Positions 680 through 48,721 of a stretch of 64,000 nt of DNA are shown piece after piece. The position numbers and the translations under genes were made by a program. The notes beneath the pieces are model-generated. The model ran no database searches. It saw only the letters and a program-made list of their open reading frames with translations, and was not told the DNA's origin. The stretch lies in NCBI GenBank assembly GCA_044229145.1, contig JBGATO010000002.1, forward strand, positions 45,873-109,872. The letters are read 5' to 3'. How positions within the stretch are numbered: the stretch's first letter is position 1; the number at the start of each line of letters is the position of its first letter. Source of the stretch: Candidatus Eiseniibacteriota bacterium. GTDB taxonomy: Bacteria > Eisenbacteria > RBG-16-71-46 > CAZEPH01.

Positions 680-796
680 GGCCGAAAGCCTACGAGTGCC
701 TCCGAGGACTGGCAAGCGAATGCGGACGAACGGTGCCAGTGAACGGACCAGTGGCAGGGATGGTTGCAGGAATCGACGCAGCCGACCGCTTGACGC

Positions 797-2041
797 GTGA
801 CGCCGCGCGCCCCACGCTCCGCGCCGATGACGCCCGCCACCATCCGCGACGCCCGCCTGCTCTACGCCTCCGCCTTCGTGCGCGCCTTCGCCACCGGCAT
901 GCTCGGTGTGTTGATGGGCGTGCAGTTGGCGCGGCAAGGATTCGACGCGTCGCGGATCGGCGTGATCGTCGCGTGCGGCTTGGCCGGCGCGGCGGCGGCC
1001 AGCGTGGTGGCGACTTTCGGCGCAGACCGCCTCGGGCGCCGTCGGCTGCTCATCGCCCTGGCGGTGCTCGGGGCGGCGGGCGCGCTTGGGCTCGCGGCGT
1101 CGTCGGGCATGGCGATGGCGATCGCCGCGGCGACGCTCGGCATGCTCAATGGCATGGGACGTGATCGCGGCGCGGCGCTGATCCTCGAGCAGGCGATCTT
1201 GCCGTCGCTCACCACCGACGCGACCCGGACCATCGCCTTCGCGCGCTACAACATCGCGCAGGACGCGGGGCATGCGCTCGGCGGTCTCGCGGCGGGCATT
1301 CCGGCAGTGTTGGCGGCGCACACGTCGCTGAGCGAGGTGGCGGCGGGGCGCGTGATGACCCTGGCGTATGCGCCGTTGGTCCTCGCCGCGATCCCGCTGT
1401 ACCTCGCGTTGTCTCCGGCCATCGCCGCCGCGCCACGCCCGCCGCGGCGGCGGCTCGATCCGCGCACGCGGTCGCTCCTGTGGCGCATCTCGTCACTGTT
1501 CGCGCTCGACAGCCTGGGCGGCGGCTTCCTCACCACCGCGTTGCTCGGCTACTTCTTCTTCCGCCGCTTCGGCGTCGGCGAGGGCACCATCGCCGTCTTG
1601 TTCTTCGCGGCGCGGGTCATGAACGCGCTGTCGCATCTCGGCGCGGCGTGGCTGGCGCGGCGCATCGGGTTGGTCAACACGATGGTGTTCACGCACATTC
1701 CGTCGTCGCTGTTGCTCGTCACGGTAGGGATGGCGCCGTCGTTCGCGGTGGCGGCGGTGCTGTTCGTGCTGCGCGAAGGACTCGTCGAGATGGATGTGCC
1801 GACGCGGCAGTCGTACGTCATGGCGGTGGTGCCGCCGGAGGATCGCACGCTGGCGTCCGGTGTCACTGGCTTGGTGCGCACGGCGGCGTGGGCGGTGGCG
1901 CCGGGATTCGCCGGCTGGGTGATGCAGCACGTGGCGTTCGCGGTGCCGCTCTACACCGGCGCGGGGATGAAGATCGTGTATGACGTGCTGTTGTGGCGCG
2001 CGTTCCGCGGCGTCAAGCCGCCCGAGGAGACGCGCGCGTGA
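797..2041 (+). CDS. MFS transporter
   Basis: 414-aa ORF with multiple hydrophobic helices and the MFS-like motif GADRLGRRR. GTG at 797; alternative ATG at 827. Confidence 0.8.
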   Translation: MTPRAPRSAPMTPATIRDARLLYASAFVRAFATGMLGVLMGVQLARQGFDASRIGVIVACGLAGAAAASVVATFGADRLGRRRLLIALAVLGAAGALGLAASSGMAMAIAAATLGMLNGMGRDRGAALILEQAILPSLTTDATRTIAFARYNIAQDAGHALGGLAAGIPAVLAAHTSLSEVAAGRVMTLAYAPLVLAAIPLYLALSPAIAAAPRPPRRRLDPRTRSLLWRISSLFALDSLGGGFLTTALLGYFFFRRFGVGEGTIAVLFFAARVMNALSHLGAAWLARRIGLVNTMVFTHIPSSLLLVTVGMAPSFAVAAVLFVLREGLVEMDVPTRQSYVMAVVPPEDRTLASGVTGLVRTAAWAVAPGFAGWVMQHVAFAVPLYTGAGMKIVYDVLLWRAFRGVKPPEETRA

Positions 2042-3135
2042 CGGCGACCGAGCGGCGGCGGCTGCATCTCGGCGGCATCGCGTGCGGGCTCGGCTCGGCG
2101 CTGTCGTTCGGCGCCAGCGCGCCGCTCGCCAAGCTGCTGCTGCCGCACGTCGGGCCGCTGACGATGGCGGCGCTGCTCTACGGCGGCGCGACGGTCGGCC
2201 TGCACCTCACGCAGCTGGTGGCATGGCTGGCGCGCGGCCGCACGCCGCCGGAGAACCCCGACACGCCGTTGCAGCGTCACGACTATCCCGTCCTGCTCGC
2301 GACCATCCTCGCCGGCGGAGTCGCCGGGCCGATCTTCCTCATGCTGGGCCTGCAGCGGGTGAGCGGCGTCACCGGATCGCTGCTGCTCAATCTGGAAGCG
2401 CCGTGCACCATCGGCATCGCGGTGCTGGTGTTCCGCGAGCATCTCGGCGTGCGGGCGCTGGGCGGCGCGCTGGCGATCCTGGCGGGCGCGGTGGCGCTCG
2501 GCGCGCGCAGCGCCGCACCCGGCGATGGCGCGCACACGACGCCGCTCGGCGTCGCCCTGGTGGCCGCCGCCTGCGTATCGTGGGCGATCGACAGCAACCT
2601 GTCGCAGAAGCTCTCGCTGCGCGATCCCTGGCACGTGACGCGGCTCAAGACGCTCGGCGCGGCTCTCGTCTCGACGGCGATCGCAGGGGCGGCGCGCGAG
2701 ACGGCGCCGGAGTGGCGCTACGTGCCGTGGACGCTGGCGCTCGGCTACGTCAGCTACGGGCTCAGCATCATCCTGTACATCCGCGCGCTTCGCGGCATCG
2801 GCGCGGCACGGCAGGGCGCGATCTTCGCCACTGCGCCGTTCGCCGGCGCGCTGCTCGCGGTGCCGGTGCTCGGGGAGCGCGTCGGGCCGTTCGACCTCGC
2901 GGCGGGCGCGGCGATGGCGGCGGGTATCGCGCTGCTCGCCGGCGACCATCACGAGCACGAGCATGCGCACGACGCACTGGAACACGACCACCTCCACGTG
3001 CATGATGCGCACCATCAGCACGCCCACGCGGACGTGCCCGCGGGCGACGAGCCGCACGCGCATCCGCACACACACGTGCCGCTCACCCACGCGCATCCGC
3101 ACGTGAGCGACGTGCACCATCGCCACGATCACTGA
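2038..3135 (+). CDS. DMT/EamA-family transporter with His-rich C-terminal tail
   Basis: GTG at 2038 overlaps the upstream stop (GTGA); GGAGA 8 nt upstream. About 10 TM segments in two EamA-like halves. Last ~65 aa are HEHEHAHDALEHDHLHVHDAHHQHAHADVPAGDEPHAHPHTHVPLTHAHPHVSDVHHRHDH. Confidence 0.8.
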   Translation: MTATERRRLHLGGIACGLGSALSFGASAPLAKLLLPHVGPLTMAALLYGGATVGLHLTQLVAWLARGRTPPENPDTPLQRHDYPVLLATILAGGVAGPIFLMLGLQRVSGVTGSLLLNLEAPCTIGIAVLVFREHLGVRALGGALAILAGAVALGARSAAPGDGAHTTPLGVALVAAACVSWAIDSNLSQKLSLRDPWHVTRLKTLGAALVSTAIAGAARETAPEWRYVPWTLALGYVSYGLSIILYIRALRGIGAARQGAIFATAPFAGALLAVPVLGERVGPFDLAAGAAMAAGIALLAGDHHEHEHAHDALEHDHLHVHDAHHQHAHADVPAGDEPHAHPHTHVPLTHAHPHVSDVHHRHDH

Positions 3136-3161
3136 GCCGCGCCCGAAGGAGACCGTTCGCC

Positions 3162-4082
3162 GTGTCCGATCGTTTCGCCGTGAACCTGCGTCTTGGCCTG
3201 GCCGCGGCCGCCGTCGCGGCGTGCGCGTGCGTGTTCGCCGCGTGCTCATCGACCACCGAGCCGAAGATCAACCCGACGGTGATCGACACCTATCCGGCGT
3301 GGTCGCCGGACGGCCACACCATCGCGTTCACGCGGCGCAGCAGTGAGGTGTGGACGCTCGACGTGGCGAGCGGGGCGACGACCAAGATCGCCGCCGGCGT
3401 GCTGCCCGCGTGGTCGCCCGACGGGACGAAACTGGGCTACGTCAACGCCGGCCGCTACTACACGCGGGTGTGGGCCACCGGCGACACCAGCTCGGTGCAG
3501 ATCAACGGCCGCTTCCCGACGCATGACGCGGACTGGAGCCGGCTCGCCTTCGGTCTCGGCAGCAACATCTCGGGCGACACGCTCAACGGCATCTGGTACA
3601 TCGGCGACGGCGCCACCACGCCGCGGCTCCTGATGCGCGCCAACGACGTCTACCTGCCCGACGTATCGATGCTGGCCTGGGCGCCGAGCGACACCACGAT
3701 CCTCTTCATGTCGCATGTCATCGAAGGCGCGGAGGAGATCTACCAGTTCCACCTGCGCGACTCGTCGGTGGTCCTGCTCACCTCGGGCGCGCTGGTCAAC
3801 CGCGACCCCGCGTGGTCGCCCGACGGCCGCACGATCGCGTGGGCCCGGGCCTACGCCGGCGACACTAACCCCAACTCGGGCATTTGGTTGATGGACAAGG
3901 ACGGCTACCAGCAGCGCTTGCTTACCACCGGCGGGACGAAGGAGACGGTGGCGCTGTCGCCGGCGTGGTCGCCCGACGGAGCGCAGATCGTCTACTCCGG
4001 CTACAACGACGACAGCGACACGTTCACGCTGTGGGTGATCAGCACGGACGGGACGGGGAAGCGTCAGCTCACTCGCCCATAG
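3162..4082 (+). CDS. TolB-like PD40 beta-propeller lipoprotein
   Basis: Lipobox-like signal (AACACVFAACSS). Repeated AWSPDG/PAWSPDG motifs typical of WD40-like (PD40) TolB-type propellers. Confidence 0.75.
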   Translation: MSDRFAVNLRLGLAAAAVAACACVFAACSSTTEPKINPTVIDTYPAWSPDGHTIAFTRRSSEVWTLDVASGATTKIAAGVLPAWSPDGTKLGYVNAGRYYTRVWATGDTSSVQINGRFPTHDADWSRLAFGLGSNISGDTLNGIWYIGDGATTPRLLMRANDVYLPDVSMLAWAPSDTTILFMSHVIEGAEEIYQFHLRDSSVVLLTSGALVNRDPAWSPDGRTIAWARAYAGDTNPNSGIWLMDKDGYQQRLLTTGGTKETVALSPAWSPDGAQIVYSGYNDDSDTFTLWVISTDGTGKRQLTRP

Positions 4083-4205
4083 GGCTCGCTCTGGCTTAGC
4101 CCATTGAGGTAGACTTTAGGCGGCATCTCGTCCGTTCCGGTACTCGCATCGCCGCCCAGCCGGACCTGCCCTCCCGGCCCCCCATGTCCTCACCCGAGGC
4201 CCCTC

Positions 4206-7200
4206 ATGCACCCCTGTGTCCGCCACGGCCTCCGCGCCGCCGCCTTGCTGTGCGCTCTCGCGCTCGCCCCCGTCGCCCACGCCGCCACCTCGGGCGACTA
4301 CCGCACCTACAACTCCGGCGACTGGTCCAACCAGGCCGTCTGGCAGAGGTACGACGGCTCGTCGTGGATCAACGTCTCGACCTCGCCGACCTCCGCCGAC
4401 GGCGCGATCACGATCCGCGACAGCATCACGGTCACCACCTCGGTGACCGTCGATCAAGTGACGGTGAACGCCGGCAGGCAGATCACGATCAAGCTCGGGA
4501 AGACGCTGACGCTCGCCGACGGCGCGGACACCGACCTCACGATCAACGGCACCGTGCTCAACCAGGGCACGCTCGCGCTCACCGGCAGCGCGACCTGGGC
4601 GGTCAACGACGGCGGGACCTACATCCACAACACCGTGTCGGCCGTCGCCACCTCGCTGGACGCGGCGACGCTCGGCGCCGCGAGCACGATCATCTACCGC
4701 GGCTCGGACACGCTCGATCCGCCGTCGAGTCTCGGCGGCCGCACGTACGGCCACTTGCGCTACGAGTCGACGTCCGGCGCGTGGTCGTTCAATCCGACGA
4801 CGGGCCAGCCGATCACCATCCTCGGCGACTTCTTCCTCGGCACCGGCGTGACCATGACCGCCGCGAATACCGGCGTCATGACTTTCGGCGGCAACTACAC
4901 GATCGACGGCACGCTGACCAATAGCGGCGGCACGCAGAAGTACACGTTCACCGGTGCGGCGGCCACCGTCGCGGGCGCGGGCGCGATCACCTTCGAGCAG
5001 TTCAGCGTCCCGGCGGGCGCCGACCTCACGCTGGCGGCGCCGGTGACGCTGGCGTCCGGCTTCACGGCGACGGTCGACGGCACGCTGGAGGCCAACGCGG
5101 CGCTCACGGCGAACAGCACGCCGCAGGTCAACGGGACGCTGCGCCTGAATGGCGGGTCGATCTCGAGCCAGCCGACCTATGGTGCGGCGTCGACGCTGGT
5201 GCTGAACGCGACCGGCGCCGTGGGGAACGAGTGGGGTGACTCCGGCAGCACCGCCGGGCCGGGCGTGCCGCAGAACGTCAGCGTCCTCTCCGGGACCGCG
5301 ACGATGCCGGCCGCCGCGCGCACCTGCCCCGGCACGCTGAGTCTCGACGGCGGGTCGCTCACGCTTGGCGGCGCCGACCTCACCGTGGGGCAATCGCTGG
5401 CCCTCACCAGCGGCGTGCTCGCCACCGGCGGCAACACCGTCATCCTCGCCAGCGGCGGCACGGTGACGCGCGGCACGGGCCAGGTGAACGGACTGCTGCG
5501 GAAGACGGTCCCCACCGGCGCGCCCAGCGTGACCTTCGAGATCGGCGACGGCGCGCGCTACACGCCGGTCAAACTCGACTTCGCCAGCGTGACCACCGCC
5601 GGTCCGGTGACGGCGGGCACCACGACCGGCGACAATCCCCAGCTCGCGACGTCGAAACTCGACGGCGCCAAGTCCGTGAACCGCTGGTGGACGCTCACGC
5701 CCGGCAGCTTCGTGTTCACCACCTGCGATGCCAAGTTCACCTTCGACCCGGCGGATGTGGACGCCGGCGCCACTCCGGCGAACTTCATCGTCGGGCGATA
5801 CGACTCCGCGGCGTGGAGCTACCCGGCTCTCGGCAACCTCACGACGACGAGCACGCAGGCCACCAACCTCACGGCCTTCGGCGATTTTGCCCTCGGGGAG
5901 ACGATCGCGTTCACGATCACCGCCACGGCCGGCGCGAACGGCAGCATCAACCCCAGCGGCGCGGTCAGCGTGACCTACGGCAACAACAAGAATTTCACGA
6001 TAGCGCCCAACCCCTCGTACTACGTGGAAGACGTGCTGGTGGATGGCGTGAGCGTCGGGGCGGTGGACAGCTACAAGTTCTTCGACGTGCGGGCCAACCA
6101 CACCATCGCCGTGTCGTTCGCGCTAGGAACGCTGGCGTATCGCTCGGCGGCATCGGGCAACTGGAACAGCCCGACGACATGGGAGGTGTTTGACGGCGCG
6201 GCGTGGGTCGCGGCCAGCGCGCTTCCCGATCCGTCGCTGGCCGGCCCGATCACCATCCGCAGCCCGCACGTCGTCACCTGCACGGACTCGCAGACGGTCG
6301 ACGAACTCACGGTAGATGCCGGCGCGACCCTCACCGTGAACGAAGGGGAGGCAGTCGCGGTGCAGGACGGCCCGGGGACCGACTTGGTATTGAACGGCAC
6401 CCTCCACAGCATGGGCACATGCTACATGGCCTTCACCTCAAACGGCGAGGTGAACGACGGCGGCAACTACATTATCTATGCGGCATCAAACGGCCAATTA
6501 GCCAACCTAGTACTCTCGGTCCACAGCACCGTTACCTATCGTACGGAAGATGGTGTCGGTCCCTTCCATGGGGACATGACGAGCTACGGAAACCTCGTGA
6601 TTGACGGGACAGGGGTCGTGGGATTTCAGGGTAACTTGGATCTCACCGTCAGAGGAGACTGCCTGATATTGGGGGCCTCGATGCATGTCACGGCAACGGG
6701 GACGCTTCGCTTCGCCGGGGACGTCACATGCCTATCGGGTTACTTCGATCTCGATCAGAACGATGAAGAAGGTCACACCCAGATTTGCGAGTTCACGGGC
6801 GTGGGGAAGACGGTCAGCGGCTCGTTCCCCCAAATGGAGCAGGTCAAGATCCCCACCGGGGCCGACATCACAATCGAGGGCCAGTTTGTCTTCCTTCCGG
6901 GATTCGAGTCCTCCATCGACGGCACTCTGCGCGCCCAAGGGGGGGACATCACCGCAGATGGGACGGTGCGGGTCAAGGGCACCGTGCGGCTCGCGGGCGG
7001 TCCAGGTAAAGTGAAAGGGACTGGATCATTCTCGTACACCGCCGGTGCGACGCTGATTTACGATGGCGATGTCACGATGGACGCCGTCTCGTGGCCCTCT
7101 GCAAATGGCCCTACCAAGGTGACCGTCAGCAGCGGCGCAAAACTCAACATGGGCGCAGCCGCGCGAACGGTGAGCGGGACATTCCGGACGGCGGGGATTG

Positions 7201-8279
7201 TGAAGGGCAACTCGGGTGCGCTCACACTCCCCGGCGTGACGCAGATCGATCCCGGCGGCTCCTTTAACTTCACGCCGACGTACACCACGGGCTCGACACT
7301 TGTGTACAACAGTTCGGCGACCGTCGGCTCCGAGTGGAAGGCTGGCTCGGTCGCCGGCCTCGGCGTACCACAAAACGTCACCATCCAGCCGGGCGTGGGC
7401 GCCGCCGTCTCGCTGCCCGCCACCGATCGCACCTGTCCGGGCACGCTGACGTTGACCAACGGCACGCTGGCGACGGGCAACGTGACGATGATCGCCGCCG
7501 GATCCGTCGTGCGCACCGGTGGCTGGGTGAATGGCCGCTTGCAGAAGCCTGTGGCGGCGGGTGCCGTGTCGCAGGTGTTCGCGATCGGCGACTCGACCCG
7601 CTACGCGCCGGTCCAGGTGAACTACACGTCGGTCTCGGTGGGCGGCACGGTGACCGCGTCGACGACGGCGGGCGATCACCCGAGCATCGCCAGCTCGCCG
7701 CTCAACCCGGCGAAGACGGCGAACCGCGTGTGGACGCTGACCAACGTGGGGACGGTGTTCGACTCGGCGGCGGTGACGGTCACCTTCGACCCGCTCGACG
7801 TGGACGCGGGGGCCGACCCGGCGGTGTTCCTCGTGGGGCGATTCACCGCGCCCTCGACGTGGACCGCGCCGGCCGTCGGCGCACGCACCGCGACGAGCAC
7901 GCAGGCGACGGGGCTCACGGCGTTCGGCGACTTTGCCGTGGGCGAGGCTCCGGCGCCGGTGGCGGTCGGTGACCCGTGGCTGGTGAGCACGGCGATCCCG
8001 GCGGCGACGGCGCTGTTGCCTGCTGCACCGAACCCGGCGCATGGAGTCGCGCACCTGCGCTTCGCCTTGCACGAGCGCGGACCGGTGCGCCTGGCCGTGT
8101 ACGACATCCGCGGGCGTCTCGTGCGCACGCTGCTGCGCGCCGACGCGATCGCCGGCACGCACGGCCTCGTGTGGGACACGCGTGACGCGAGCGGTCACGC
8201 GGTGGGCGCGGGGCTGTACCTGCTGCGGCTCGAGACGGGCGGACGCGCCGTCACCGGCCGCTTGCAGATCGTGCGCTAG
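4206..8279 (+). CDS. giant secreted repeat protein (adhesin-like) with TIGR04183-like C-terminal sorting domain
   Basis: ATG 4206. Signal peptide MHPCVRHGLRAAALLCALALAPVAHAATS. Two homologous ~600-aa halves separated by an InlB-B-repeat-like segment (FTITATAGANGSINPSGAVSVTYGNNKNFTIAPNPSYYVEDVLVDGVSV...HTIAVSF). C terminus NPAHGVAHLRF...VRLAVYDIRGRLVRTLL...GLYLLRLETGGRAVTGRLQIVR resembles a Por-secretion tail. Confidence 0.8.
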   Translation: MHPCVRHGLRAAALLCALALAPVAHAATSGDYRTYNSGDWSNQAVWQRYDGSSWINVSTSPTSADGAITIRDSITVTTSVTVDQVTVNAGRQITIKLGKTLTLADGADTDLTINGTVLNQGTLALTGSATWAVNDGGTYIHNTVSAVATSLDAATLGAASTIIYRGSDTLDPPSSLGGRTYGHLRYESTSGAWSFNPTTGQPITILGDFFLGTGVTMTAANTGVMTFGGNYTIDGTLTNSGGTQKYTFTGAAATVAGAGAITFEQFSVPAGADLTLAAPVTLASGFTATVDGTLEANAALTANSTPQVNGTLRLNGGSISSQPTYGAASTLVLNATGAVGNEWGDSGSTAGPGVPQNVSVLSGTATMPAAARTCPGTLSLDGGSLTLGGADLTVGQSLALTSGVLATGGNTVILASGGTVTRGTGQVNGLLRKTVPTGAPSVTFEIGDGARYTPVKLDFASVTTAGPVTAGTTTGDNPQLATSKLDGAKSVNRWWTLTPGSFVFTTCDAKFTFDPADVDAGATPANFIVGRYDSAAWSYPALGNLTTTSTQATNLTAFGDFALGETIAFTITATAGANGSINPSGAVSVTYGNNKNFTIAPNPSYYVEDVLVDGVSVGAVDSYKFFDVRANHTIAVSFALGTLAYRSAASGNWNSPTTWEVFDGAAWVAASALPDPSLAGPITIRSPHVVTCTDSQTVDELTVDAGATLTVNEGEAVAVQDGPGTDLVLNGTLHSMGTCYMAFTSNGEVNDGGNYIIYAASNGQLANLVLSVHSTVTYRTEDGVGPFHGDMTSYGNLVIDGTGVVGFQGNLDLTVRGDCLILGASMHVTATGTLRFAGDVTCLSGYFDLDQNDEEGHTQICEFTGVGKTVSGSFPQMEQVKIPTGADITIEGQFVFLPGFESSIDGTLRAQGGDITADGTVRVKGTVRLAGGPGKVKGTGSFSYTAGATLIYDGDVTMDAVSWPSANGPTKVTVSSGAKLNMGAAARTVSGTFRTAGIVKGNSGALTLPGVTQIDPGGSFNFTPTYTTGSTLVYNSSATVGSEWKAGSVAGLGVPQNVTIQPGVGAAVSLPATDRTCPGTLTLTNGTLATGNVTMIAAGSVVRTGGWVNGRLQKPVAAGAVSQVFAIGDSTRYAPVQVNYTSVSVGGTVTASTTAGDHPSIASSPLNPAKTANRVWTLTNVGTVFDSAAVTVTFDPLDVDAGADPAVFLVGRFTAPSTWTAPAVGARTATSTQATGLTAFGDFAVGEAPAPVAVGDPWLVSTAIPAATALLPAAPNPAHGVAHLRFALHERGPVRLAVYDIRGRLVRTLLRADAIAGTHGLVWDTRDASGHAVGAGLYLLRLETGGRAVTGRLQIVR
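4296..5900 (+). repeat. internal tandem duplication, copy 1 (within giant secreted protein gene)
   Basis: Residues ~31-565 (YRTYNSGDWSNQAVWQRYDGSSW ... TAFGDFALGE) align along their length with residues ~645-1240. Confidence 0.7.
6138..7926 (+). repeat. internal tandem duplication, copy 2 (within giant secreted protein gene)
   Basis: Residues ~645-1240 (YRSAASGNWNSPTTWEVFDGAAW ... TAFGDFAVGE). Shared blocks include STLV.N..A.VG.EW...GS.AG.GVPQNV and RTCPGTLSL/TLT, TFDP.DVDAGA.PA.F.VGR. Boundaries approximate. Confidence 0.7.
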
Positions 8280-9496: not shown

Positions 9497-10372
9497 ATGT
9501 CCAGCCTGCCGGCGCTCCGCCCGCGCACCGCGCTCGAATGGAAGCGCTTCTATGCCGCCGAGCGCGCCACGCTCGGCGCCGAGGGGCTGCTGCGGCTCGT
9601 CGACGAGGCGCCGCCTTGCGAGTTGCCGCGTGGCGGCGCATTGGTGTTTCCGCACACGCGGCTCGCGCACAGCGGCGTGGTGACAGCGGCGGCGGCGAAG
9701 GCGGTGATCGCGTCGGGTGTGGGAACGGTGCTGGCGCTCGGCGTGCTGCACGGCGGGCGGGAGTGCGATGCGGAGCGCGTCGCCGCCGCGCGGGCGGGCG
9801 ATGTCGCGGCCCGCGCGGCGTTGCGGCGCGTGCACGGGCCTGGCGCTGACGGGGACGATGGCGTCTGGGCCGAAGAGTTCTCGCTCGCCAATTTCCTGGT
9901 GCTGCTCCGCGCTGCGGCGTGGCGCGCGGGACAGCACCCGCCCCTCGTCGTCACACGCTATCCGTTCCTCACGGGCGACGATCCCGAATCCGTGCCGGGA
10001 TTCGACGAGCTGCGACGCCTGCGCGACGGCGGCGCCGCACTCGTCGCCACGGCCGACGCGATCCACCACGGCGTCGGCTACGGCACGCCGGAGAATGAAC
10101 AGCGGCGCCGCGTGGACGCGGCGACCTTCGCCTGGGCGACCCACCGGCTCTCGACGCACCACGGTCTGATCGCCCGCCGCGACTACGCCGAATTTCAGAT
10201 CGACGCGGCGCGGTTGCGCTCGGACTTCCGCGACAACGGTCCGGTGCTCGGCGCGCTGCTCGGCGGCGCTACGTCGTCCCTGCGCCAGTTGCGACTGGTC
10301 AACTACGCCGACGTCTTCGCCTGTGCCGAGCCCACGTGGGTCGCGGCCGCGCTCGTCGCCTACTCCGTGTAA
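9497..10372 (+). CDS. MEMO1-family (LigB-superfamily) protein
   Basis: ATG 9497, divergent from kynA. Motif FPHTRLAHSGVVTAAAAKAV resembles the MEMO1 PHAGYxYSGxxAAxAY signature. Otherwise no recognisable family. Confidence 0.5.
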   Translation: MSSLPALRPRTALEWKRFYAAERATLGAEGLLRLVDEAPPCELPRGGALVFPHTRLAHSGVVTAAAAKAVIASGVGTVLALGVLHGGRECDAERVAAARAGDVAARAALRRVHGPGADGDDGVWAEEFSLANFLVLLRAAAWRAGQHPPLVVTRYPFLTGDDPESVPGFDELRRLRDGGAALVATADAIHHGVGYGTPENEQRRRVDAATFAWATHRLSTHHGLIARRDYAEFQIDAARLRSDFRDNGPVLGALLGGATSSLRQLRLVNYADVFACAEPTWVAAALVAYSV

Positions 10373-10806
10373 CTGCGCCGCCGGCGCCACTCCATGTACT
10401 TCTCCGGCTCGGCGAGCGCGGTGTAGCCGATCTTCGCGTACAGCGGATGCGCGTCGCGCGTCACCAACACCCAGCGGCGGAAGCCTTGCAACGCTTCGTG
10501 ATCGTGCACCACGCGCATCATCCACTCGGCCAGCCCGCGGCCGCGGAACTCCTCGAGCACGTACACGTCGGCGAGATAGCCGAAGGTCGCGAAGTCGGTG
10601 ATGACGCGGCAAAAGCCGATCTGCCGTTCGCCGTCGCCCTCGGCGACGTAGAGCCCGAACGGCATCGAGTGCGCGATGCCGAGCGCCAGCGTCTCGAACG
10701 GAATCCCCGGCGACCAGTACGACCCGACGAGGTAGTCGTGGATCGCCTGCAGGTCGAGCCGGTCCGGATCGTCGCTCAGCGTGAATGCGTCGCGGGTCCA
10801 CTCCAT
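10360..10806 (-). CDS. GNAT-family N-acetyltransferase
   Basis: Start MEWTRDAFTLSDD (cat 10804-10806). GNAT core LYVAEGDGERQIGFCRV...VYVLEEFRGRGLAEWMM. Confidence 0.75.
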   Translation of the reverse strand: MEWTRDAFTLSDDPDRLDLQAIHDYLVGSYWSPGIPFETLALGIAHSMPFGLYVAEGDGERQIGFCRVITDFATFGYLADVYVLEEFRGRGLAEWMMRVVHDHEALQGFRRWVLVTRDAHPLYAKIGYTALAEPEKYMEWRRRRSYTE

Positions 10807-10808
10807 CG

Positions 10809-11732
10809 TCACGCCTCCCGACGCGTCGGCCGCCGCGCCGACGTCGTGATGAGCACCACCGCCGCGATCACCAGCGCGCTGGCGATCCAATGCCGCGTCG
10901 TCAGTTGCTCGCCGCCGAGCGACCAGCCGAGCAGCACGGCCACCACCGGATTGATGTATGCGTAGGTCGAGGCGCGCGCCGGACTCACGTGCTTGAGCAG
11001 CCAGATGTATGCGGTGAATGCCACCAGCGAGCCGAACACGATGAGATAGGCGAGCGACAACCACGCGCGCGTCGTCACCGTCGCCGGATGGAATGCGGGC
11101 CACTGATGCGTCGCCGCCGCCATCAGCGCGAGGCCGGCGCCGCCGGCGAGCATCTCCATCGCCGTGCCCATCGCCGCCGACTGCGGCAGCGGCGCCTGCC
11201 GCGCATACAGCGAGCCCGACGCCCAGCCCATCGCGCCGATCAAGATCGCCACCGTGCCGACGAGATCGAGCGGTTCGCCCGGCAAGATGCTCGACGGGCC
11301 GATGAGCCACGCCACACCCGCGAGGCCGACGAGCAGCCCGAGGATGGTCCCGCCGTGCGGCCGTTGCTTGGTGATGAACGCCCATTCGAGCACCGTCACG
11401 TAGATCGGCGTGATGCCGATCAGCACCGCCGCGAGGCCGCTCGGAATGCGTGTCTCGGCGAACACCACGCCGCCGTGCGACATGCACAACATGCCGACGC
11501 CGATGAGCGCCGCGCTGCGCCACTCGATGCGCCGCGGCCACGGTGCGCCGGTCGCCTTCGCCCACACCAGCATCGCCCCGCCGGCCATCAGGAACCGCAG
11601 TGCCGCCATCACGAATGGCGGCAGCGATTCGAGCGCGAAGCGGATCGCCAGATAGGTCGATCCCCAAATCACGTACACCGCCGCGAACGCGGCGACGAGC
11701 GGGAGCAACGCGGGACGGGACGAGGTGGGCAT
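10809..11732 (-). CDS. EamA/DMT-family transporter
   Basis: Start MPTSSRPALLPLVAAFAAVYVIWGSTYLAIRF (cat 11730-11732). Ten predicted TM helices in two EamA halves. Confidence 0.8.
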   Translation of the reverse strand: MPTSSRPALLPLVAAFAAVYVIWGSTYLAIRFALESLPPFVMAALRFLMAGGAMLVWAKATGAPWPRRIEWRSAALIGVGMLCMSHGGVVFAETRIPSGLAAVLIGITPIYVTVLEWAFITKQRPHGGTILGLLVGLAGVAWLIGPSSILPGEPLDLVGTVAILIGAMGWASGSLYARQAPLPQSAAMGTAMEMLAGGAGLALMAAATHQWPAFHPATVTTRAWLSLAYLIVFGSLVAFTAYIWLLKHVSPARASTYAYINPVVAVLLGWSLGGEQLTTRHWIASALVIAAVVLITTSARRPTRREA

Positions 11733-11814
11733 CGGGCGAGTGTGCGGAGGCGCGGCGGGGGAGGCGAGGTCCAAAGCGGGAGGGTGACGTCGCGGCGCCA
11801 AAATCGTGTATTGC

Positions 11815-12135
11815 CTACTCTCCGTACATCTCCGTCAGCGTGCGGCGGAGCGCGGACGCCTCGACGGCGGTGAGCCGTCCGATCTTGTCGCGCACACGCT
11901 TCTTGCTCACCGTGCGAATCTGATCGACCGCCACGTCGGCCGGTTGCCCCTCGCATTTGACCAGCACGCGTGACCGCCAGGTCGGCCTCGGTTGCGAGGT
12001 AAGCGGACACACCGTGATGGTGTGCAGGTGCCGATTCAGTTCGTCGAGACTGACGATGACGGCCGGCCGAGTCTTGCCGATCTCCGCGCCGCGCACGGGA
12101 TCGAACTCGACCCACACGATGTCGTAGCGCTTCAT
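11815..12135 (-). CDS. mazF: MazF/PemK-family type II toxin (mRNA interferase)
   Basis: Start MKRYDIVWVEFDPVRGAEIGKTRPAVIVS (cat 12133-12135), the classic PemK/MazF N-terminus. Overlaps the upstream antitoxin gene by 4 nt (ATGA). Confidence 0.8.
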   Translation of the reverse strand: MKRYDIVWVEFDPVRGAEIGKTRPAVIVSLDELNRHLHTITVCPLTSQPRPTWRSRVLVKCEGQPADVAVDQIRTVSKKRVRDKIGRLTAVEASALRRTLTEMYGE

Positions 12136-12455
12136 CGCCGCGGCTTCCGCGGCGACTTGGTTTTGTAGGCGGGAGCCTTTTCCGCGACCTTCGAGACCCA
12201 CGGGGCGGATTCGAGCCCGTCGGCATTCGTCGAATCCCATGCCGCCCAATCCTCGACGGCGGCTGCCATTTCACGCGCCGTATCAGCCCACGAGAGCTTC
12301 TCGGCGGCGTTTCCCGCGGGCCGCAGCAGGATGCCGTCGCTACGCTCCTCCATGATGACACTGTCGCCGATGTGGAAGCGCTTGAGCGTCGCGGCGGGAA
12401 TCCGCACGCCGCGCGAGTTGCCGATCTGGGCGATTTTCAGGCGGATAGCTGGCAT
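12132..12455 (-). CDS. mazE: MazE/AbrB-family antitoxin (SpoVT/AbrB domain)
   Basis: Start MPAIRLKIAQIGNSRGVRIPAATLKRFHIGDSV (cat 12453-12455), a swapped-hairpin AbrB fold. Lies immediately upstream of mazF and is translationally coupled to it. Confidence 0.75.
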   Translation of the reverse strand: MPAIRLKIAQIGNSRGVRIPAATLKRFHIGDSVIMEERSDGILLRPAGNAAEKLSWADTAREMAAAVEDWAAWDSTNADGLESAPWVSKVAEKAPAYKTKSPRKPRR

Positions 12456-12516
12456 GTGCTTACAGTAACTACATCGAAAGTGTGCTGTCAATGAGCGCGG
12501 GGCACGCCCGGGCGCG

Positions 12517-13002
12517 TCATGCGCGGATCTCCACCTCGCCCTCGATCTCGACCGGAATGCGGAACGGCAACTCCGCCATCCCGACCGCGCTGCGCGCATG
12601 CGCGCCAACCTCCGGCCCAAACACTTCGAGGATGAGATCGCTGAACCCGTTGATCACCTTCGGCTGTTCGATGAAACCCGGCGCCGAGTTGACCATGCCG
12701 AAGAAGCGTCCGAATGCCGTGATGCGATCGAGGTCGCCCAGCGCACGCTGCAGGCTGCCGAGGATCGACAGCGCCGTAAGACGCGCCGCGACGTAGCCTT
12801 CATCGACCGTGAGGTCGCTCCCGACCTTCCCGAACGGCGCGGCGAATGAACCGTCCGCCGCTTGCGGTCCGTGTCCGCTGATCAGCGCCCGCGTCCCGAC
12901 GACGCGCACGAACTGGAACGGCAGCACGAAGCCGGGCGGCGGCACCGTTGGCGGCGGCAGGACGAGGCCGAGGCCGGCGAGGCGGTTGGCGATCTGGGAC
13001 AT
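12517..13002 (-). CDS. RidA/YjgF/RutC-family protein
   Basis: Start MSQIANRLAGLGLVLPP (cat 13000-13002). 161 aa with the RidA-like C-terminal block GAHARSAVGMAELPFRIPVEIEGEVEI. Confidence 0.8.
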   Translation of the reverse strand: MSQIANRLAGLGLVLPPPTVPPPGFVLPFQFVRVVGTRALISGHGPQAADGSFAAPFGKVGSDLTVDEGYVAARLTALSILGSLQRALGDLDRITAFGRFFGMVNSAPGFIEQPKVINGFSDLILEVFGPEVGAHARSAVGMAELPFRIPVEIEGEVEIRA

Positions 13003-13030
13003 GGGGATCTCCGGAGAACGTTGAGTGCGG

Positions 13031-14009
13031 CTACTGCGAGCCGCCGCCGAGGAGGCACTCCATGTACACGACGCCCTCCAGCGGATTGTCGTAGTACGGC
13101 GCGATCTCGACGAAGCCGAGCGTGCGGTACAGCGCCTGCGCCGCCTGCATCTGCTGTGGCGAGCGTGTCGAGGCGCATCGCGCGGTAGCCGATCTCGCGC
13201 GCCGCATCGAGCACGGCGAGCGCGAGCGCGCGGCCGAGGCCGGTGCCGCGTGCCGAGGGCGTGACGAACAGCCGCTTCATCTCGCAGATGTCGCCGTCGA
13301 GCGGACGCATCGCGATGCAGCCGACGGCGGTGCCTTCGCCCGTTTCCGCCACGAACAGCCGCCCGCGCGGCGGCGCGTACTTGCCCGGCAGCGCCGCGAG
13401 TTCCGCCGAGAAGCCCTGGAAGCACAGATCGAGCGCCGTGTCCTCTTCGTACGCGCGGAACAGCGCCCGCACGGTGTCGAGATCGGCGTCCAGCGCCGGG
13501 CGAATCACGAATGGCGACGAGGTGCCCTGTCCCACGATCGCACTCCTCCTCTCGAGCAACACGGTGTCGCGCCACACGCCGTGCAGACGCCCGACCCGCT
13601 CTCGCACGCCGACGTCGCGGAAGCCGCAGGCGCGATGCAGCGCGAGGCTCGCCGCGTTGTCGGCCAGCACGCCGGCCTGCAGCGTCCACACGCCCGCCGC
13701 CTCCGACGCGGCGATCAGCGCCTCCAGTAATGCGCGGCCGACGCCCTGTCCGCGCGCCGACGCCGCAACGTACAGCCCGACATCCGCGACACCGCGATAG
13801 CACGCCCGCGACGACACCGGCGACAGCGCCGCCCAGCCGACGACCGCGCCGTCGCGCCGCGCCACCAGCCGTCCGGCCGCCAGCCGCGACGCATCGAATC
13901 GCTCCCACGACGGCACCGCCGTCTCGAACGTCGCCATGCCGGTGGCGATGCCCTCGGCATAGATCGCCGCGATGGCCGGCCAGTCGGCGGCTGTGAAGGT
14001 GTCGATCAT
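13031..14009 (-). CDS. tandem-GNAT N-acetyltransferase, apparent +1 frameshift near 3' end
   Basis: Start [17 protein letters not shown] (cat 14007-14009). Two GNAT cores (..[17 protein letters not shown].. and ..[18 protein letters not shown]..). After ...AMRLDTL the frame yields junk. Shifting by one nt at ~13160 restores the canonical GNAT end [42 protein letters not shown], with stop at 13031. Confidence 0.6.
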
Positions 14010-21578: not shown

Positions 21579-22472
21579 TTACGACTTTCGCGAGGGCTTC
21601 GGTGGCACGCTCTGGAGGAACATCCACAGCGCCGCGAGTTCGTCGTCGGTCATTTGCCCGAAGTTCGGCCACGGCATGTAGCGGCTCAGCACCTTGCCCT
21701 CCGGCGTTTGGCCGGTGCGCAGCGTGTGGACGAACTGCTCCTGTGTCCAGTGGGCGAGGTTGCCGCCCTCACCGCGTGTCAGGTTGGGCGCCGGCGGCGC
21801 GCCGGGCTCGCCGGTGGAGCCGCCGGCGAGGTCCTTCTGGTGGCAGCCGATGCACGAGTTCGCCAGGTAGCTGCCGTAGGCGGCGGTGACGCCGATCGCC
21901 GGCGCGGGCGGATACGGCGCGGCATGGTCGATCTGATCGGCGGGGATGAAGCCGGACGGCTGCAGGGTGGCCAGGAGCCAGCCCAAGGGCCGCAACGTGC
22001 AGCCGGGGCTCGGCTTGTCGCTGGCCGGCAGGCTGCGGGCGTAGGCAATCAGCGCGCCGACATCGGAGTCGCTCAGGTGCCAGTAGAGGTCGGCGGGCAT
22101 GACGAACAGCGCGCGCCCGCTTGGCGTCACGCCGTGGCGGATGGCGCGATTCCAGTCGGCGGGCGAGAAGTCCTTGGTCAGACCGCCGCGCGTGATGTTC
22201 GGCGCGTGGACGCGGCCCACCGGGCCGGCTTCGAAGATCGTCGTTCCAGCCAAGTCCGCGCCGTGACATCCCTGGCAGTCGAAGATCACGGCCAAGTGCT
22301 TGCCGCGGGCGATCGCGGCGGAGTCGCTCGGCACGGTCACCGAGACAGCGGGCACGACGTGGGTGCGCGTGCGCAAGTACTGCACGCGGACTCCCATCAC
22401 GGCGAACGCGAGGACGACGAGGGCGAGCAGTGCCACGACGGCACGCACCAGCCAACGGACGAAGGTTCGCAT
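21579..22472 (-). CDS. diheme c-type cytochrome, membrane-anchored
   Basis: Start MRTFVRWLVRAVVALLALVVLAF (cat 22470-22472). Two CxxCH motifs (CQGCHG, CIGCHQ). Confidence 0.8.
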   Translation of the reverse strand: MRTFVRWLVRAVVALLALVVLAFAVMGVRVQYLRTRTHVVPAVSVTVPSDSAAIARGKHLAVIFDCQGCHGADLAGTTIFEAGPVGRVHAPNITRGGLTKDFSPADWNRAIRHGVTPSGRALFVMPADLYWHLSDSDVGALIAYARSLPASDKPSPGCTLRPLGWLLATLQPSGFIPADQIDHAAPYPPAPAIGVTAAYGSYLANSCIGCHQKDLAGGSTGEPGAPPAPNLTRGEGGNLAHWTQEQFVHTLRTGQTPEGKVLSRYMPWPNFGQMTDDELAALWMFLQSVPPKPSRKS

Positions 22473-22634
22473 GGGGGCGACCTCCTGTGCTCTTCGGGTC
22501 GACGAGACCCCGGCGGGGCCGACGGTGGGGAGTTCGCCTAAAGTAGCCCATCCGTGCGCTCCCGCAAGTCCCTTTCTCGGCTGAATCCTTCGCGCCCCTG
22601 TGTGTCTCGCACGCCGTGAAAGGGGGATCCACAG

Positions 22635-22844
22635 ATGACGTTCGGACGCAACGAAGGCGCGGTGGACCGTGTGGTGCGCGCGGTGGTGGGAGCAGCGCTG
22701 GTGGGCTCGGCGGTGGTGGGGCCGCATTGGAAGTGGGGCTGGATCGGCGTCATCTTGCTGGTCACCGCCGCGCTCGGCATGTGCCCGCTGTACTCGATCT
22801 TCGGCATCTCGACCTGCCCGGCCAAGCCGGCGCGCAAGGCCTGA
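22635..22844 (+). CDS. DUF2892 (YgaP-like) small inner-membrane protein
   Basis: ATG 22635 with AAGGGGGA RBS. 69 aa ending GMCPLYSIFGISTC, the DUF2892 signature. Confidence 0.7.
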   Translation: MTFGRNEGAVDRVVRAVVGAALVGSAVVGPHWKWGWIGVILLVTAALGMCPLYSIFGISTCPAKPARKA

Positions 22845-22932
22845 CGCCGGACGCGCCTCGCGAGGGCGCGCCATGCAGAACGCCCCGGGCGACGGCATCC
22901 CGCCCGGGGCGTTCGCGTGTGGGGGGCGATGA

Positions 22933-23352
22933 TCAGCGGGCCGGTTGCGCGGTCCGGGCGACCAAGGCGTCGAGGGCGCGGGTGAGGCCGGCGGCCACCT
23001 CGTCGGCGAGCGGCTGCAGGCGCAAGTCGCCCGCCGCGGCGAGCGTCCGGCGCGGGTCGATCGCGGTGACCACGGTCTGTCCGTCGTCGGCTTCGTAGAC
23101 GGTGACGTTGCACGGCATCATGAGCCCGACGTCGAGGGTCGCCGACAGCGCCTTGTAGGCGAACGGCGGATTGCACGCGCCGAGGATGCGGTAGCGGCGG
23201 AAGTCGACGTCGAGTTTCTTCTTGAGCGTCGCCGTCACGTCGATTTCGGTCAGGATGCCGAACCCTTCGGCCTGGAGGGCCTCGGGGACCAGCGTGAGGG
23301 CATCGTCGAAGCTCACCGGGACGGTGCGCTGGATGCCGAAGGATTCACTCAT
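22933..23352 (-). CDS. DUF302-domain protein
   Basis: Start MSESFGIQRTVPVSFDDALTLVPEALQAEGFGILTEIDV (cat 23350-23352). DUF302 fold signature. Confidence 0.75.
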   Translation of the reverse strand: MSESFGIQRTVPVSFDDALTLVPEALQAEGFGILTEIDVTATLKKKLDVDFRRYRILGACNPPFAYKALSATLDVGLMMPCNVTVYEADDGQTVVTAIDPRRTLAAAGDLRLQPLADEVAAGLTRALDALVARTAQPAR

Positions 23353-47013: not shown

Positions 47014-48513
47014 TTACTCGGTGAGCAGAATGGTGCCCGTGGCGCGGGCGCCCTGTGACTCGACGTCGAGCCGGTACACGCCGTGCGGCAGGCGCCGCCC
47101 GGTGGAATCGTGCCCATCCCAACTCACGGTGCGTTCGCCGCGTGCGCCGTCGACGTGCCACCGCCGCACCACGCGTCCCCGCACGTCGCTGAGCAGCAGG
47201 CGCGTGGCGCCGGCGTCGGCTTGCGCCCAGCACAGCCGCGCCCGGCTCGACGTCGTCCCGCGCACCTGCAGGGACGATTCCGACGCCGGCGGAGGCGCCA
47301 CGGCCGTGACGGTCGGCTCGAGTCGCCACACCGCGTTGCTGGTGAGATCGACGATGTGCAGGATGCCGTCGGGATCGAGATCGAAATCGGTCACCGCGCC
47401 GAATCCCTGGCCCCAGGTCAGTGAGGCAACCTCGCTCGTGTTGTTGTCCGCGACGCGATCGGCGAGCAGCGGATCGCTCAGCACGAACGAATCGCGCGAC
47501 GCCGCCATCGGGAACAGGTACAGCCTGCCGAAGTTGTTGTCGCCGACGATGCACTGATCTTGCAGCGCCGGACCGTAGTGCGGCGTGTGCAGGAAGAGGA
47601 TCGCGCACGGCGTCACCACCTGCGCCCACGAGAACTCCGGATCGCTGTACGCGGCGCCGGGCGCCATCCAGAGATCCGCGACGCCCTTCGGCGAGCGCGC
47701 GTCGGGCCCGACGATCTGTTCCCAGCCGCCGTTCATGCCCGGCGTGATGCGATTGATCTCGTCGTAACTGGTGGGCCCCGGCTCGGTGTTCCACAGTGTG
47801 CCGGTGAGCGGATCGAAGGTCATGCCGAAGCAGTTGCGCAGGCCGTACGAGTACACCAGCTCCATGCGTGTCACGCCGGCGAACGGATTGTCGGCGGGCG
47901 CGCTGCCATCGTCGTTCATGCGCATGACGACGCCGGTGGTGTCCGGCGCCGGTCCGGCCGGATAGTTCTGCAACTTGCCGTTGCGATTGAGTTCGCCGAT
48001 CACCGCGTAGAGTTTGCCATCGGGACCGAACTGCAGGATACCGCCGTCGTGATTCGGGCCCGGCGTGACCTCGAGCCGCTGGATGATGGTCGGCGTCGTG
48101 AGCGCGCTGCCCGTCCACGTATAGCGCACGATGCGATTGTCGAGCGCCTGCGTCGAGTTGCTGGTGTCGTTGAGCGTCGAGCTCTGCGTGAAGTAGACGT
48201 AGACCCACGGCGTCGCCGGGAACTGCGGGTGCAAGGCGATGCCGAGCAGGCCGCGCTCGCTCGCCGAGTTGACGGCGACATCGAGCACCGGCGCCGGCTG
48301 CAAGACGCCGCCGATGACGCGCTGCACGCGGCCGGTGGTCTTCTCGCACACCAAGAAATCGCCGCGATCGAGGAACACCATGGTGGTCGGCGAGTTGAGG
48401 CCAGTGACCACCGCGGTGACCTTGAGCGTGGTGTCCGCCATCGTCGGCGCCGCCAGGGCAGGCCGCGCGCAGGCGACGACGAGCAGCGTGAGGGCACGAC
48501 CGAGCATTCGCAT
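47014..48513 (-). CDS. PQQ/GSDH-like beta-propeller with C-terminal sorting domain (paralog of 28302-29858)
   Basis: Start MRMLGRALTLLVVACARPALA (alternative ATGs 48525, 48507). Propeller blocks (GLLGIALHP, LQFGPDGKLY). C terminus LLSDVRGRVVRRWHV...HGVYRLDVESQGARATGTILLTE. Confidence 0.8.
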   Translation of the reverse strand: MRMLGRALTLLVVACARPALAAPTMADTTLKVTAVVTGLNSPTTMVFLDRGDFLVCEKTTGRVQRVIGGVLQPAPVLDVAVNSASERGLLGIALHPQFPATPWVYVYFTQSSTLNDTSNSTQALDNRIVRYTWTGSALTTPTIIQRLEVTPGPNHDGGILQFGPDGKLYAVIGELNRNGKLQNYPAGPAPDTTGVVMRMNDDGSAPADNPFAGVTRMELVYSYGLRNCFGMTFDPLTGTLWNTEPGPTSYDEINRITPGMNGGWEQIVGPDARSPKGVADLWMAPGAAYSDPEFSWAQVVTPCAILFLHTPHYGPALQDQCIVGDNNFGRLYLFPMAASRDSFVLSDPLLADRVADNNTSEVASLTWGQGFGAVTDFDLDPDGILHIVDLTSNAVWRLEPTVTAVAPPPASESSLQVRGTTSSRARLCWAQADAGATRLLLSDVRGRVVRRWHVDGARGERTVSWDGHDSTGRRLPHGVYRLDVESQGARATGTILLTE

Positions 48514-48721
48514 GGGAGGGCGCATCCTTTCCGAGAGGGTGTGCTGAGTGTGCCACAGGCCGCGGGCGCACACTAGTCGCGGGCCAGCCGATGGCCGGAC
48601 GCTCAGGAAAACCCCGCAGGCGTGGCGTCGTTCCGCTCGACCGGCGGCGGGTCATCGCCGATACTCCGGCCGCGCCGCCGCGCAGGCAACTTCCGGCTCC
48701 CACTCACCTTGCGAGGATGTC

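Follow-up and report, generated by a model that had tools for sequence, protein, structure and literature searches.

A block of A/T-ending codons within a predicted surface-protein gene of Candidatus Eisenbacteria: a possible segment replacement

Introduction

The pspA clades of pneumococci and ospC of Borrelia are intragenically recombinant surface-protein genes. Amelioration of compositionally atypical, horizontally acquired DNA was reportedly described by Lawrence and Ochman. Candidatus Eisenbacteria, the phylum considered here, is known from metagenomes only. Mosaic surface-protein genes have been reported (PMC3018475, PMC2945197), and both such genes and "replacement islands" of atypical codon usage have ample documentation (PMC4971588, citing Smith et al. 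2005). The replacement islands of Pseudomonas aeruginosa comprise the pyoverdine, O-antigen, pilin, and flagellin loci; diversifying selection, horizontal transfer, or both are invoked to explain them (PMC4971588). An association of GC3 with recombination, or GC-biased gene conversion, has also been described in bacteria (Lassalle et al. 2015, PMC4450053).

Herein, we analyzed a 64-kb window (the whole stretch of DNA under study) in which one gene carries a compositional island of ~300 codons. The likeness to pspA and ospC would be a block in a surface-protein gene swapped for a diverged homologous block with the frame kept. Donors and alternative alleles of those genes are known from population samples, whereas the present block was seen by composition alone. 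With the P. aeruginosa replacement islands, the locus shares a GC-rich genome, highly divergent surface- or receptor-related sequence, and unusual codon and oligonucleotide usage, and its island shows the atypical codon usage that marks replacement islands in a GC-rich genome. In contrast, those islands are whole genes or clusters found by strain comparison, and the present one spans ~300 codons of one gene in one assembly. Like ameliorating acquired DNA, the island is GC-poorer than its host genome, most of all at third codon positions; however, it is intragenic, has no mobile-element genes or tRNA nearby, and gave no source lineage. GC-biased gene conversion is a force already known, and its loss at one locus could depress GC3 over ~1 kb, but it has been described between genes rather than as a sharp-edged intragenic valley (PMC4450053).

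Results

The gene under study had been called giant in the original prediction, and its product is only 1,357 aa long. An identical protein, P0001 (NCBI), is known from one 114-kb contig only. The parts of the gene are listed below.

4206..8279, + strand: gene for a predicted secreted surface protein of 1,357 aa, from ATG to stop (ORF list and translation), in the order signal peptide, module 1, linker, module 2, T9SS-type C-terminal domain
4206..4286, + strand: probable Sec signal peptide MHPCVRHGLRAAALLCALALAPVAHAA (translation read by eye)
4299..5915, + strand: module 1, aa 32–570, GC3 ~0.95 (self-alignment, family alignment, GC3 profile)
5916..6137, + strand: linker, aa 571–644, resembling a repeat unit with many tandem occurrences in relatives
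6138..7955, + strand: module 2, aa 645–1250, predicted right-handed beta-helix followed by a beta-sandwich (AlphaFold2 model)
8025..8276, + strand: predicted C-terminal sorting domain of FlgD_ig / T9SS type A (PF13860, TIGR04183)

By self-alignment, the two module copies were 30–55% identical in protein, well short of the closeness that had been implied for them, and their sequences indicate old, distant paralogues. Module 1 is without a segment of ~85 aa that the family alignment shows to be canonical. An insertion of these extra residues in copy 2 was therefore ruled out, and copy 1 has a deletion. The linker shares 56–66% identity with the "TITASAGANGSISPSG..." units repeated in P0004, P0006, P0007, and P0015. 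The best whole-protein match was 41% identical over 42% of the query. No orthologue was found, a whole-protein scan of species-representative genomes being empty, and no solved structure was found among the sequence relatives.

The AlphaFold2 model of aa 640–1250 was all-beta (mean pLDDT 86.7, pTM 0.77), and a Foldseek search with the module 2 model gave weak matches to autotransporter passengers and phage tailspikes (TM 0.14–0.26). The predicted right-handed beta-helix and the extracellular role would be shared with the Hbp, EspP, and Ag43 passengers and the tailspikes. Unlike autotransporter adhesins, of which a C-terminal beta-barrel translocator is the hallmark, this protein ends in a FlgD_ig / T9SS domain and the translocator is absent. 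The domain scored marginally above the cut-offs of PF13860 (28.6 bits, cut-off 27) and TIGR04183 (23.8 bits, cut-off 23) and below that of PF18962. Judging by this predicted domain, the product is probably a T9SS-secreted, adhesin-like surface protein.

Change-point analysis and codon mapping placed the following features within module 2.

6450..6473, + strand: conserved motif VNDGGNYI, aa 749–756, with the compositional break at its 3' end (codon map)
6471..7373, + strand: compositional island, codons 756–1056 (change-point analysis, synonymous-codon test, calibration against other genes)
6471..6785, + strand: island core, codons 756–860, GC3 0.63
7362..7379, + strand: conserved motif GVPQNV, aa 1053–1058 (codon map)

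The low-GC island originally placed at 6400–7420 corresponds to a real dip, with its break at 6471 (6456–6482) and its end near 7373, where the edge is poorly defined. The string quoted for it, AACTACATTATC...GTACTC, is present at nt 6465–6515. The proposed sliding-window GC/GC3 profile gave a significant dip, with an island GC3 of 0.73 versus 0.92–0.95 in the flanks. Lower GC and atypical A/T-ending codons were likewise borne out. GC in 300-nt windows fell to 0.56–0.62 between ~6300 and 7050, the lowest stretch of the 64-kb window (mean 0.698, sd 0.038), and 81/316 degenerate codons of the island ended in A or T, whereas elsewhere in the gene 73/1,010 did (Fisher p = 1.7e-16). GC3 in 50-codon windows was 0.64–0.84 for codons 726–1050 and 0.88–1.00 over most of the remaining gene. 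Across the 64 kb, codon-phase GC was depressed longest from 6271 to 7380; the other depressed runs were gene boundaries or intergenic gaps, leaving this valley as the only long intragenic one in the window. None of 5,000 permutations was as low as the observed minimum. Calibration on 19 genes of the window that have Pfam support (9,899 codons) gave 0.754 as the lowest 301-codon value elsewhere, and the core value of 0.63 was reached by only 0.25% of 105-codon windows. The compositional anomaly is real, block-like, synonymous, and far beyond chance.

The island encodes beta-helix rungs, residues 117–417 of the AlphaFold2 model, and its core protein is only ~30% identical to the family consensus. 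It is internally uneven, with a GC3 of 0.63 followed by 28 codons at 0.96 and then 0.76; the 3' part reached 0.68–0.84. All three codon positions shifted, and GC2 and amino-acid composition changed as well. A3 and T3 rose equally, with no strand bias. Preference between C- and G-ending codons departed from that of the genome as well: the GGC:GGG ratio of Gly codons was 20:14 versus ~82% GGC (p = 0.003), and the CCC:CCG ratio of Pro codons was 6:2 versus ~25% CCC (p = 0.003), with a combined p of 8e-4 from small counts. C:G ratios among the G/C-ending island codons were near 1:1. The non-coding stretches of the 64 kb had a GC content of 0.56–0.69, close to the island GC3.

The two edges differ. 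On the left, the change point lies after codon 755, with 2-lnL support covering codons 750–759 (nt 6456–6482). This sharp edge is directly 3' of VNDGGNYI, the motif whose DNA is best conserved in the N-terminal domain; over 24 nt, that DNA is 87.5% identical to the copy-1 motif. The protein departs from the family ~20 codons upstream, in GC-ending codons. On the right, the edge is diffuse. It is best placed after codon 1056 with wide support (codons 987–1080), and A/T-ending codons cluster for the last time (GTA CCA CAA) inside the GVPQNV motif.

The copy-1 counterpart (codons 114–314) had genome-typical codons, as originally predicted, with A3 = 0.000 and T3 = 0.035. Through the same domain, GC3 was also flat at 0.9–1.0 in homologues from three other high-GC organisms; the low GC3 is thus no property of the domain itself, and no rare-codon position is conserved among the homologues. 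In the island, A/T-ending codons made up 24% at family-shared and 29% at diverged residues (p = 0.34); in the core, the values were 36% and 39% (p = 0.83). These equal frequencies rule out a by-product of amino-acid replacements. Despite its lowered GC3, the island's 3' part ranks with the most conserved stretches, and the poorly conserved linker and tail retain a GC3 of 0.84–0.92. A dependence of GC3 on protein conservation was unsupported across five family genes (Spearman rho -0.39 to +0.25).

Further simple causes were also rejected. A frameshift or wrong frame was dismissed, as no other codon phase is GC-rich in the island and the protein is co-linear with the family across it, with motifs kept and the ORF intact. 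Amino-acid composition as the sole cause was discarded, the shift being synonymous within amino acids. The equal rise of A3 and T3 is not the signature of single-strand deamination. An overlapping antisense gene was excluded, as the ORF list holds no long antisense ORF across 6471–7026.

No foreign best match, as the original prediction proposed to look for, was found for the segment. Among 1.84 billion protein cluster representatives, its closest relative was P0102 (36% identical), a member of the same GC-rich family. Neither these representatives nor metagenome contigs, viral contigs, plasmids, or phages yielded a donor or closer relative, and the searches gave no closer relationship of the island to another lineage than that of its flanks (phylogenetic incongruence). 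Within the 64 kb, there was no island repeat, template repeat, paralogue, cassette, or flanking inverted repeat and no second copy of any island-flanking sequence. The 20 larger ORFs scanned with Pfam included no reverse transcriptase, recombinase, or mobile-element genes. No tRNA was found near or within the island, and no RNA families, promoter- or terminator-like sites, or tandem repeats were found embedded in it.

Discussion

We tentatively favor, at a little below an even chance, that 4206–8279 is a mosaic gene in which a segment was replaced via recombination with a diverged, lower-GC homologue. A segment swap from a related gene of another lineage is the most likely event, of a familiar kind and with no new mechanism. 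The ~0.9-kb segment (nt ~6471–7373) for the central beta-helix rungs of module 2 would have been replaced by a homologous, strongly diverged module from a lineage with a GC3 of 0.63–0.75 or less. Crossovers may have fallen at two short family-conserved motifs, VNDGGxYI and GVPxNV, and the reading frame and module architecture would therefore have been kept. As modeled, the exposed surface of one module would likely be altered. Recombination as the cause is suggested by the block-like anomaly, the sharp left edge, the independence from conservation, and the commonness of mosaic surface-protein genes. The regional synonymous shift, the left edge at a motif, and A/T-ending codons regardless of conservation support this reading, as do the changed choice between C- and G-ending codons, the flat high-GC homologues, and the valley being the only long intragenic one. 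Family genes with GC3 in the range required of the donor exist: the P0002 gene on L001 has a GC3 of 0.64–0.94, and the C-terminal tail of P0002 is 64% identical to that of the 4206–8279 protein. Composition, left edge, and codon choice agree with the original proposal that the segment was replaced from, or supplied by, a lower-GC source, but no database searched yielded a donor and the right edge is diffuse. Also against replacement, ordinary homologous recombination at 36% identity would have only microhomology, protein divergence begins ~20 codons before the compositional edge in GC-ending codons, and the island interior is uneven.

The near 1:1 C:G ratios, from small counts, would also be expected from loss of codon preference, and in-place relaxation predicts an island GC3 near the non-coding GC of the window (0.56–0.69). 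Such decay of a native segment that lost the force holding GC3 near 0.9, a more specific version of the relaxed or variable selection originally named as the alternative, is somewhat unlikely in our estimate. Silent sites would drift to an AT-biased mutational equilibrium while the protein diverged fast, as in a hypervariable, allele-specific surface segment that no longer recombines and escapes GC-biased gene conversion or efficient selection. The coincidence of lowest GC3 and lowest family identity in the core, the equal A3 and T3 rise, the graded right edge, the island GC3 of 0.63–0.77, and the lack of an external donor in the searched collections are consistent with it, and GC3 is higher in recombining bacterial genes at the ~1-kb scale (PMC4450053). 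However, the left edge is sharp to ~10 codons, and GC-ending codons are still used at diverged residues just upstream of it. GC3 also does not follow conservation, with a well-conserved sub-domain inside the island and poorly conserved high-GC3 parts outside. Decay would need a long, strictly local relaxation with the ORF intact and co-linear with the family. An assembly chimera, with the island threaded into a metagenome contig from the homologous gene of a co-occurring organism, is quite improbable. The single NCBI contig, a source that is very likely a metagenome-assembled genome, given a best marker match to an Eisenbacteria MAG, and edges at conserved motifs fit this origin, but frame and module architecture are kept across both junctions, the left-junction motif (87.5% to copy 1 over 24 nt) is shorter than usual assembly k-mers, the flanks have no second copy in the 64 kb, and the flanks of a related strain ought to differ too.

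Selection of A/T-ending codons to slow beta-helix translation for folding or export seems very unlikely. The modeled position of the island within the beta-helix and the GC3 valleys in beta-helix repeat regions of some other family genes would suit it. Described rare-codon clusters, however, are far shorter than ~300 codons, GC2 and amino-acid composition changed as well, and module 1 and the three high-GC homologues fold the same domain at a GC3 of 0.9–1.0. Targeted hypermutation, by a diversity-generating retroelement (DGR) or a comparable system, or gene conversion by a silent cassette of the same genome has an equally slim chance. The segment is a surface-exposed part of an adhesin-like protein by prediction, its composition is like the genome's own non-coding DNA, and no external donor was found. 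Against this, the 64 kb held no template repeat, paralogue, or cassette, the 20 larger ORFs scanned included no reverse transcriptase or recombinase, and DGR variable regions are much shorter than 0.9 kb.

If the gene is a mosaic, it would represent segment-level exchange in an adhesin-like surface protein of Candidatus Eisenbacteria, with the module 2 beta-helix as the part under pressure to vary. If decay in place is the answer, the segment would offer an uncommon natural experiment below the scale of a gene. It would be a stretch with sharp bounds, freed from an extreme-GC3 force, and with population data it could be used to measure that force (biased gene conversion or selection). In either case, screens for horizontal transfer that rely on composition can pick out portions of genes, and such junctions in metagenome-assembled genomes call for checks at the read level. 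A broader form of the replacement reading, which we regard as improbable, is that beta-helix segments are exchanged repeatedly, in the manner of cassettes, within this T9SS-type surface-protein family and that the island is one case. Crossovers would be anchored at short conserved motifs, and the donors would be diverged population alleles or silent, untranslated cassettes at other sites of the genome. If true, this would be a way for an uncultured soil phylum to vary its surface. Further cases could be the intragenic GC3 valleys that we observed, at varying positions, in the beta-helix repeat regions of L094, L103, L095, and L108.

A Local Dip in GC3 within a Two-Module Surface Protein Gene

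The low-GC island lies in one gene, the product of which contains two copies of a module of ~600 aa:

4206-8279 (+): secreted-type surface protein gene, a single ORF of 1,357 aa with a signal-peptide-like N-terminus
4299-5915 (aa 32-570): copy 1 of the module
between the copies: linker of 74 aa
6138-7955 (aa 645-1250): copy 2 of the module
C-terminal end: FlgD_ig / T9SS type A sorting domain, which passed curated thresholds marginally

The two copies were only 30–55% identical to each other in a protein self-alignment. The original prediction had described a giant gene with a low-GC island beginning at 6400 in copy 2, while the counterpart in copy 1 used genome-typical codons. At 1,357 aa, the gene is not giant; its relatives encode 2,000–4,200 aa. 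The dip itself is real. Sliding 300-nt windows at ~6300–7050 gave a GC of 0.56–0.62, the minimum of the entire 64 kb; the window as a whole averaged 0.698 (sd 0.038). In 50-codon windows, third-codon-position GC (GC3) was 0.64–0.84 at codons 726–1050 and 0.88–1.00 across most other parts of the gene. Compared within amino acids, degenerate codons ended in A or T in 81 of 316 cases in the island and in 73 of 1,010 outside it (p = 1.7e-16), and none of 5,000 permutations reached the observed GC3 minimum. No 301-codon window as low was found across 19 other Pfam-supported genes of the window, where the remaining long runs of low codon-phase GC were gene boundaries or intergenic gaps. The copy-1 equivalent did use genome-typical codons (A3 = 0.000, T3 = 0.035). 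In the island, A3 and T3 rose equally and GC2 was also lowered. The rest of the gene had a GC3 of 0.92–0.95, higher than the 0.88 averaged by the other 19 genes examined, so the contrast within the gene exceeds the contrast with the genome.

The BIC-best segmentation gave three blocks, codons 1–639 (GC3 0.95), 640–1056 (0.77), and 1057–1357 (0.92). In finer segmentations, the principal fall in GC3 came after codon 755 (nt 6471), and the core at codons 756–860 had a GC3 of 0.63. Based on these boundaries, the predicted island was retained with its position corrected to 6471–7373. The left edge was sharp (2-lnL support, codons 750–759) and lay at the 3′ boundary of VNDGGNYI, a conserved motif and the sole stretch of the N-terminal domain still matching copy 1 in DNA (87.5% over 24 nt). 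The right edge was diffuse (support, codons 987–1080). The final A/T-ending cluster, GTA CCA CAA, sits within GVPQNV, a conserved motif where the beta-helix meets the C-terminal half of the module.

The AlphaFold2 model of module 2 was confident (mean pLDDT 86.7, pTM 0.77), and predicts an all-beta fold in which a beta-sandwich follows a long beta-helix. The Foldseek matches of the model, weak but consistent, were phage tailspikes and passenger domains of autotransporters; no sequence-related solved structure was found for the module. A family alignment showed the island to be co-linear with the canonical module. A segment of ~85 aa (aa 936-1015 of copy 2) was absent from copy 1 and present in the family proteins P0003, P0008, and P0102. 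An insertion in copy 2 was rejected, since the segment is canonical in the family and its presence in relatives indicates that copy 1 carries a deletion. Identity to the family consensus was lowest in the island core (~30%), compared with 0.53–0.72 at the module start and 50–58% in the same region of copy 1.

The stretch at 6471-6800 (aa 739-863) carries four cysteines (TGC; aa 739, 819, 844, and 863), with none in the equivalent part of copy 1, and charged residues are commoner than in that part. An RGD tripeptide also occurs in the island region at aa 816-818 (TVRGDCLIL). Judging from these residues, disulfides or a binding surface are possible.

Origin of the Island

No donor of the island was detected. 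An exhaustive HMMER search of 1.84 billion cluster representatives gave a best match of only 36% identity, to P0102, a member of this GC-rich family with eight matching stretches. No match was found in metagenome contigs, viral contigs, plasmids, or phages. Queried with just the island, a word-indexed protein search gave zero matches, missing even the identical parent protein P0001, and its negatives are uninformative; its candidate list was probably filled by low-complexity T/G/S-rich proteins. The expected foreign best match was not obtained. Replacement from a lower-GC source, as originally proposed, is partly supported by the block-like shift and the sharp left edge but lacks a donor in all collections searched.

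A/T-ending codons were about as frequent at family-shared as at diverged residues, both in the island (24% vs 29%, not significant) and in its core (36% vs 39%, not significant). Because both kinds of residue are equally affected, the codon shift is a property of the DNA block and not of individual replacements. GC3 was also independent of protein conservation (Spearman rho −0.39 to +0.25, five family genes): it was only 0.68–0.84 in the 3′ part of the island, which ranks with the best-conserved stretches, and stayed at 0.84–0.92 in the linker and tail, where conservation is poor. In three homologues from other high-GC organisms, GC3 of the domain was flat at 0.9–1.0. P0002 is the protein most closely related to the C-terminal part, and its gene had a GC3 of 0.64–0.94 on a contig of 66% GC. 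Codon choice in the island differed from that of the genome for Gly (GGC:GGG 20:14 vs ~82% GGC, p = 0.003) and Pro (CCC:CCG 6:2 vs ~25% CCC, p = 0.003; Fisher-combined p = 8e-4). The C:G ratios were all near 1:1, which is compatible with foreign codon usage or with lost codon preference.

We tentatively favor, at slightly under even confidence, a mosaic gene in which recombination with a diverged homologue of lower GC3 would have replaced a contiguous segment. In favor of this reading, the codon shift is synonymous and block-like, its left edge is sharp and falls at a conserved motif, it does not depend on conservation, and other GC-rich homologues show no such valley. Mosaic surface-protein genes belong to the same general class, as do the Pseudomonas aeruginosa 'replacement islands', for which unusual codon usage within a GC-rich genome is reported (PMC4971588). 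The main rival, which we consider rather unlikely, is decay in place after a GC-favoring force was lost locally. Its basis in the literature is that GC3 is higher in recombining bacterial genes at a scale of ~1 kb (PMC4450053). Such decay accounts for the lack of a donor, the graded right edge, and the C:G ratios of 1:1, and also for an island GC3 that resembles the GC of the window's non-coding stretches (0.56–0.69). A sharp left edge and a GC3 unrelated to conservation are hard to reconcile with it.

An assembly chimera is rated improbable; retention of the reading frame and architecture, together with junctions devoid of long exact repeats, counts against it. A functional cluster of rare codons is given very little weight, and conversion from a silent cassette or targeted hypermutation receives the same. 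Searches of the 64-kb window detected no template, cassette, or paralogue of the island.

GC3 Valleys in Other Family Genes

In an exploratory survey, 30 more family loci were retrieved through the conserved beta-sandwich domain. Strong internal GC3 valleys were found in L094 (5959-12543; codons ~701–1150, 0.30–0.46 vs ~0.6) and L103 (9203-15565; codons ~626–1000, 0.42–0.58 vs 0.72–0.85), and weaker ones in L095 (5996-11245) and L108 (1942-4620). These four loci come from unrelated metagenomes, and each of the four valleys falls within beta-helix repeats, not within the conserved domain. In L108, GC3 steps from ~0.72 to ~0.90 near the module junction equivalent to that of the island. The control with neighboring ORFs fails in high-GC loci, and the comparison was confined to mid-GC loci, where 3 of ~20 family genes and 0 of ~17 neighboring long ORFs had a comparable valley (not significant). 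The family-wide valleys are a lead, not a result.

On L001, the contig of P0002, GC3 of the adhesin-like gene was 0.80 and dipped to 0.64 in valleys; the hypothetical genes upstream of it, two in number, had 0.64 and 0.69. Housekeeping neighbors were far higher at 0.84–0.94. The genes of lower GC3 at this locus are 779-3160, 3489-4859, and 10001-13657.

Genomic Neighborhood

The genes around 4206-8279 are ordinary chromosomal ones, including MFS and EamA transporters, a PD40 protein, tryptophan dioxygenase, and SbcCD; searches of the neighborhood turned up neither mobile-element genes nor tRNAs or Rfam matches. Among species-representative genomes, the top match of the acetyl-CoA synthetase of the window was a Candidatus Eisenbacteria MAG (88% identity). 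The same FlgD_ig / T9SS-type tail ends two more window proteins, at 47017-48651 (−) and ~34577-34774 (+), one of which is a glucose/sorbosone dehydrogenase fusion. This recurrence suggests that such tails commonly serve as an export tag in the genome.

The sole other 105-codon windows with GC3 down to 0.60–0.64 lie in a cytochrome c gene (21582-23117, −), at codons ~80–205 of the ORF as set, upstream of the first Pfam domain (aa 268). This dip may be no true valley but the product of a wrongly set start or of a linker of low complexity. A further stretch of ~1.1 kb at 11800-12900 had an overall GC of 0.59–0.69 and contained short ORFs only, with a best-phase GC of 0.78–0.86.
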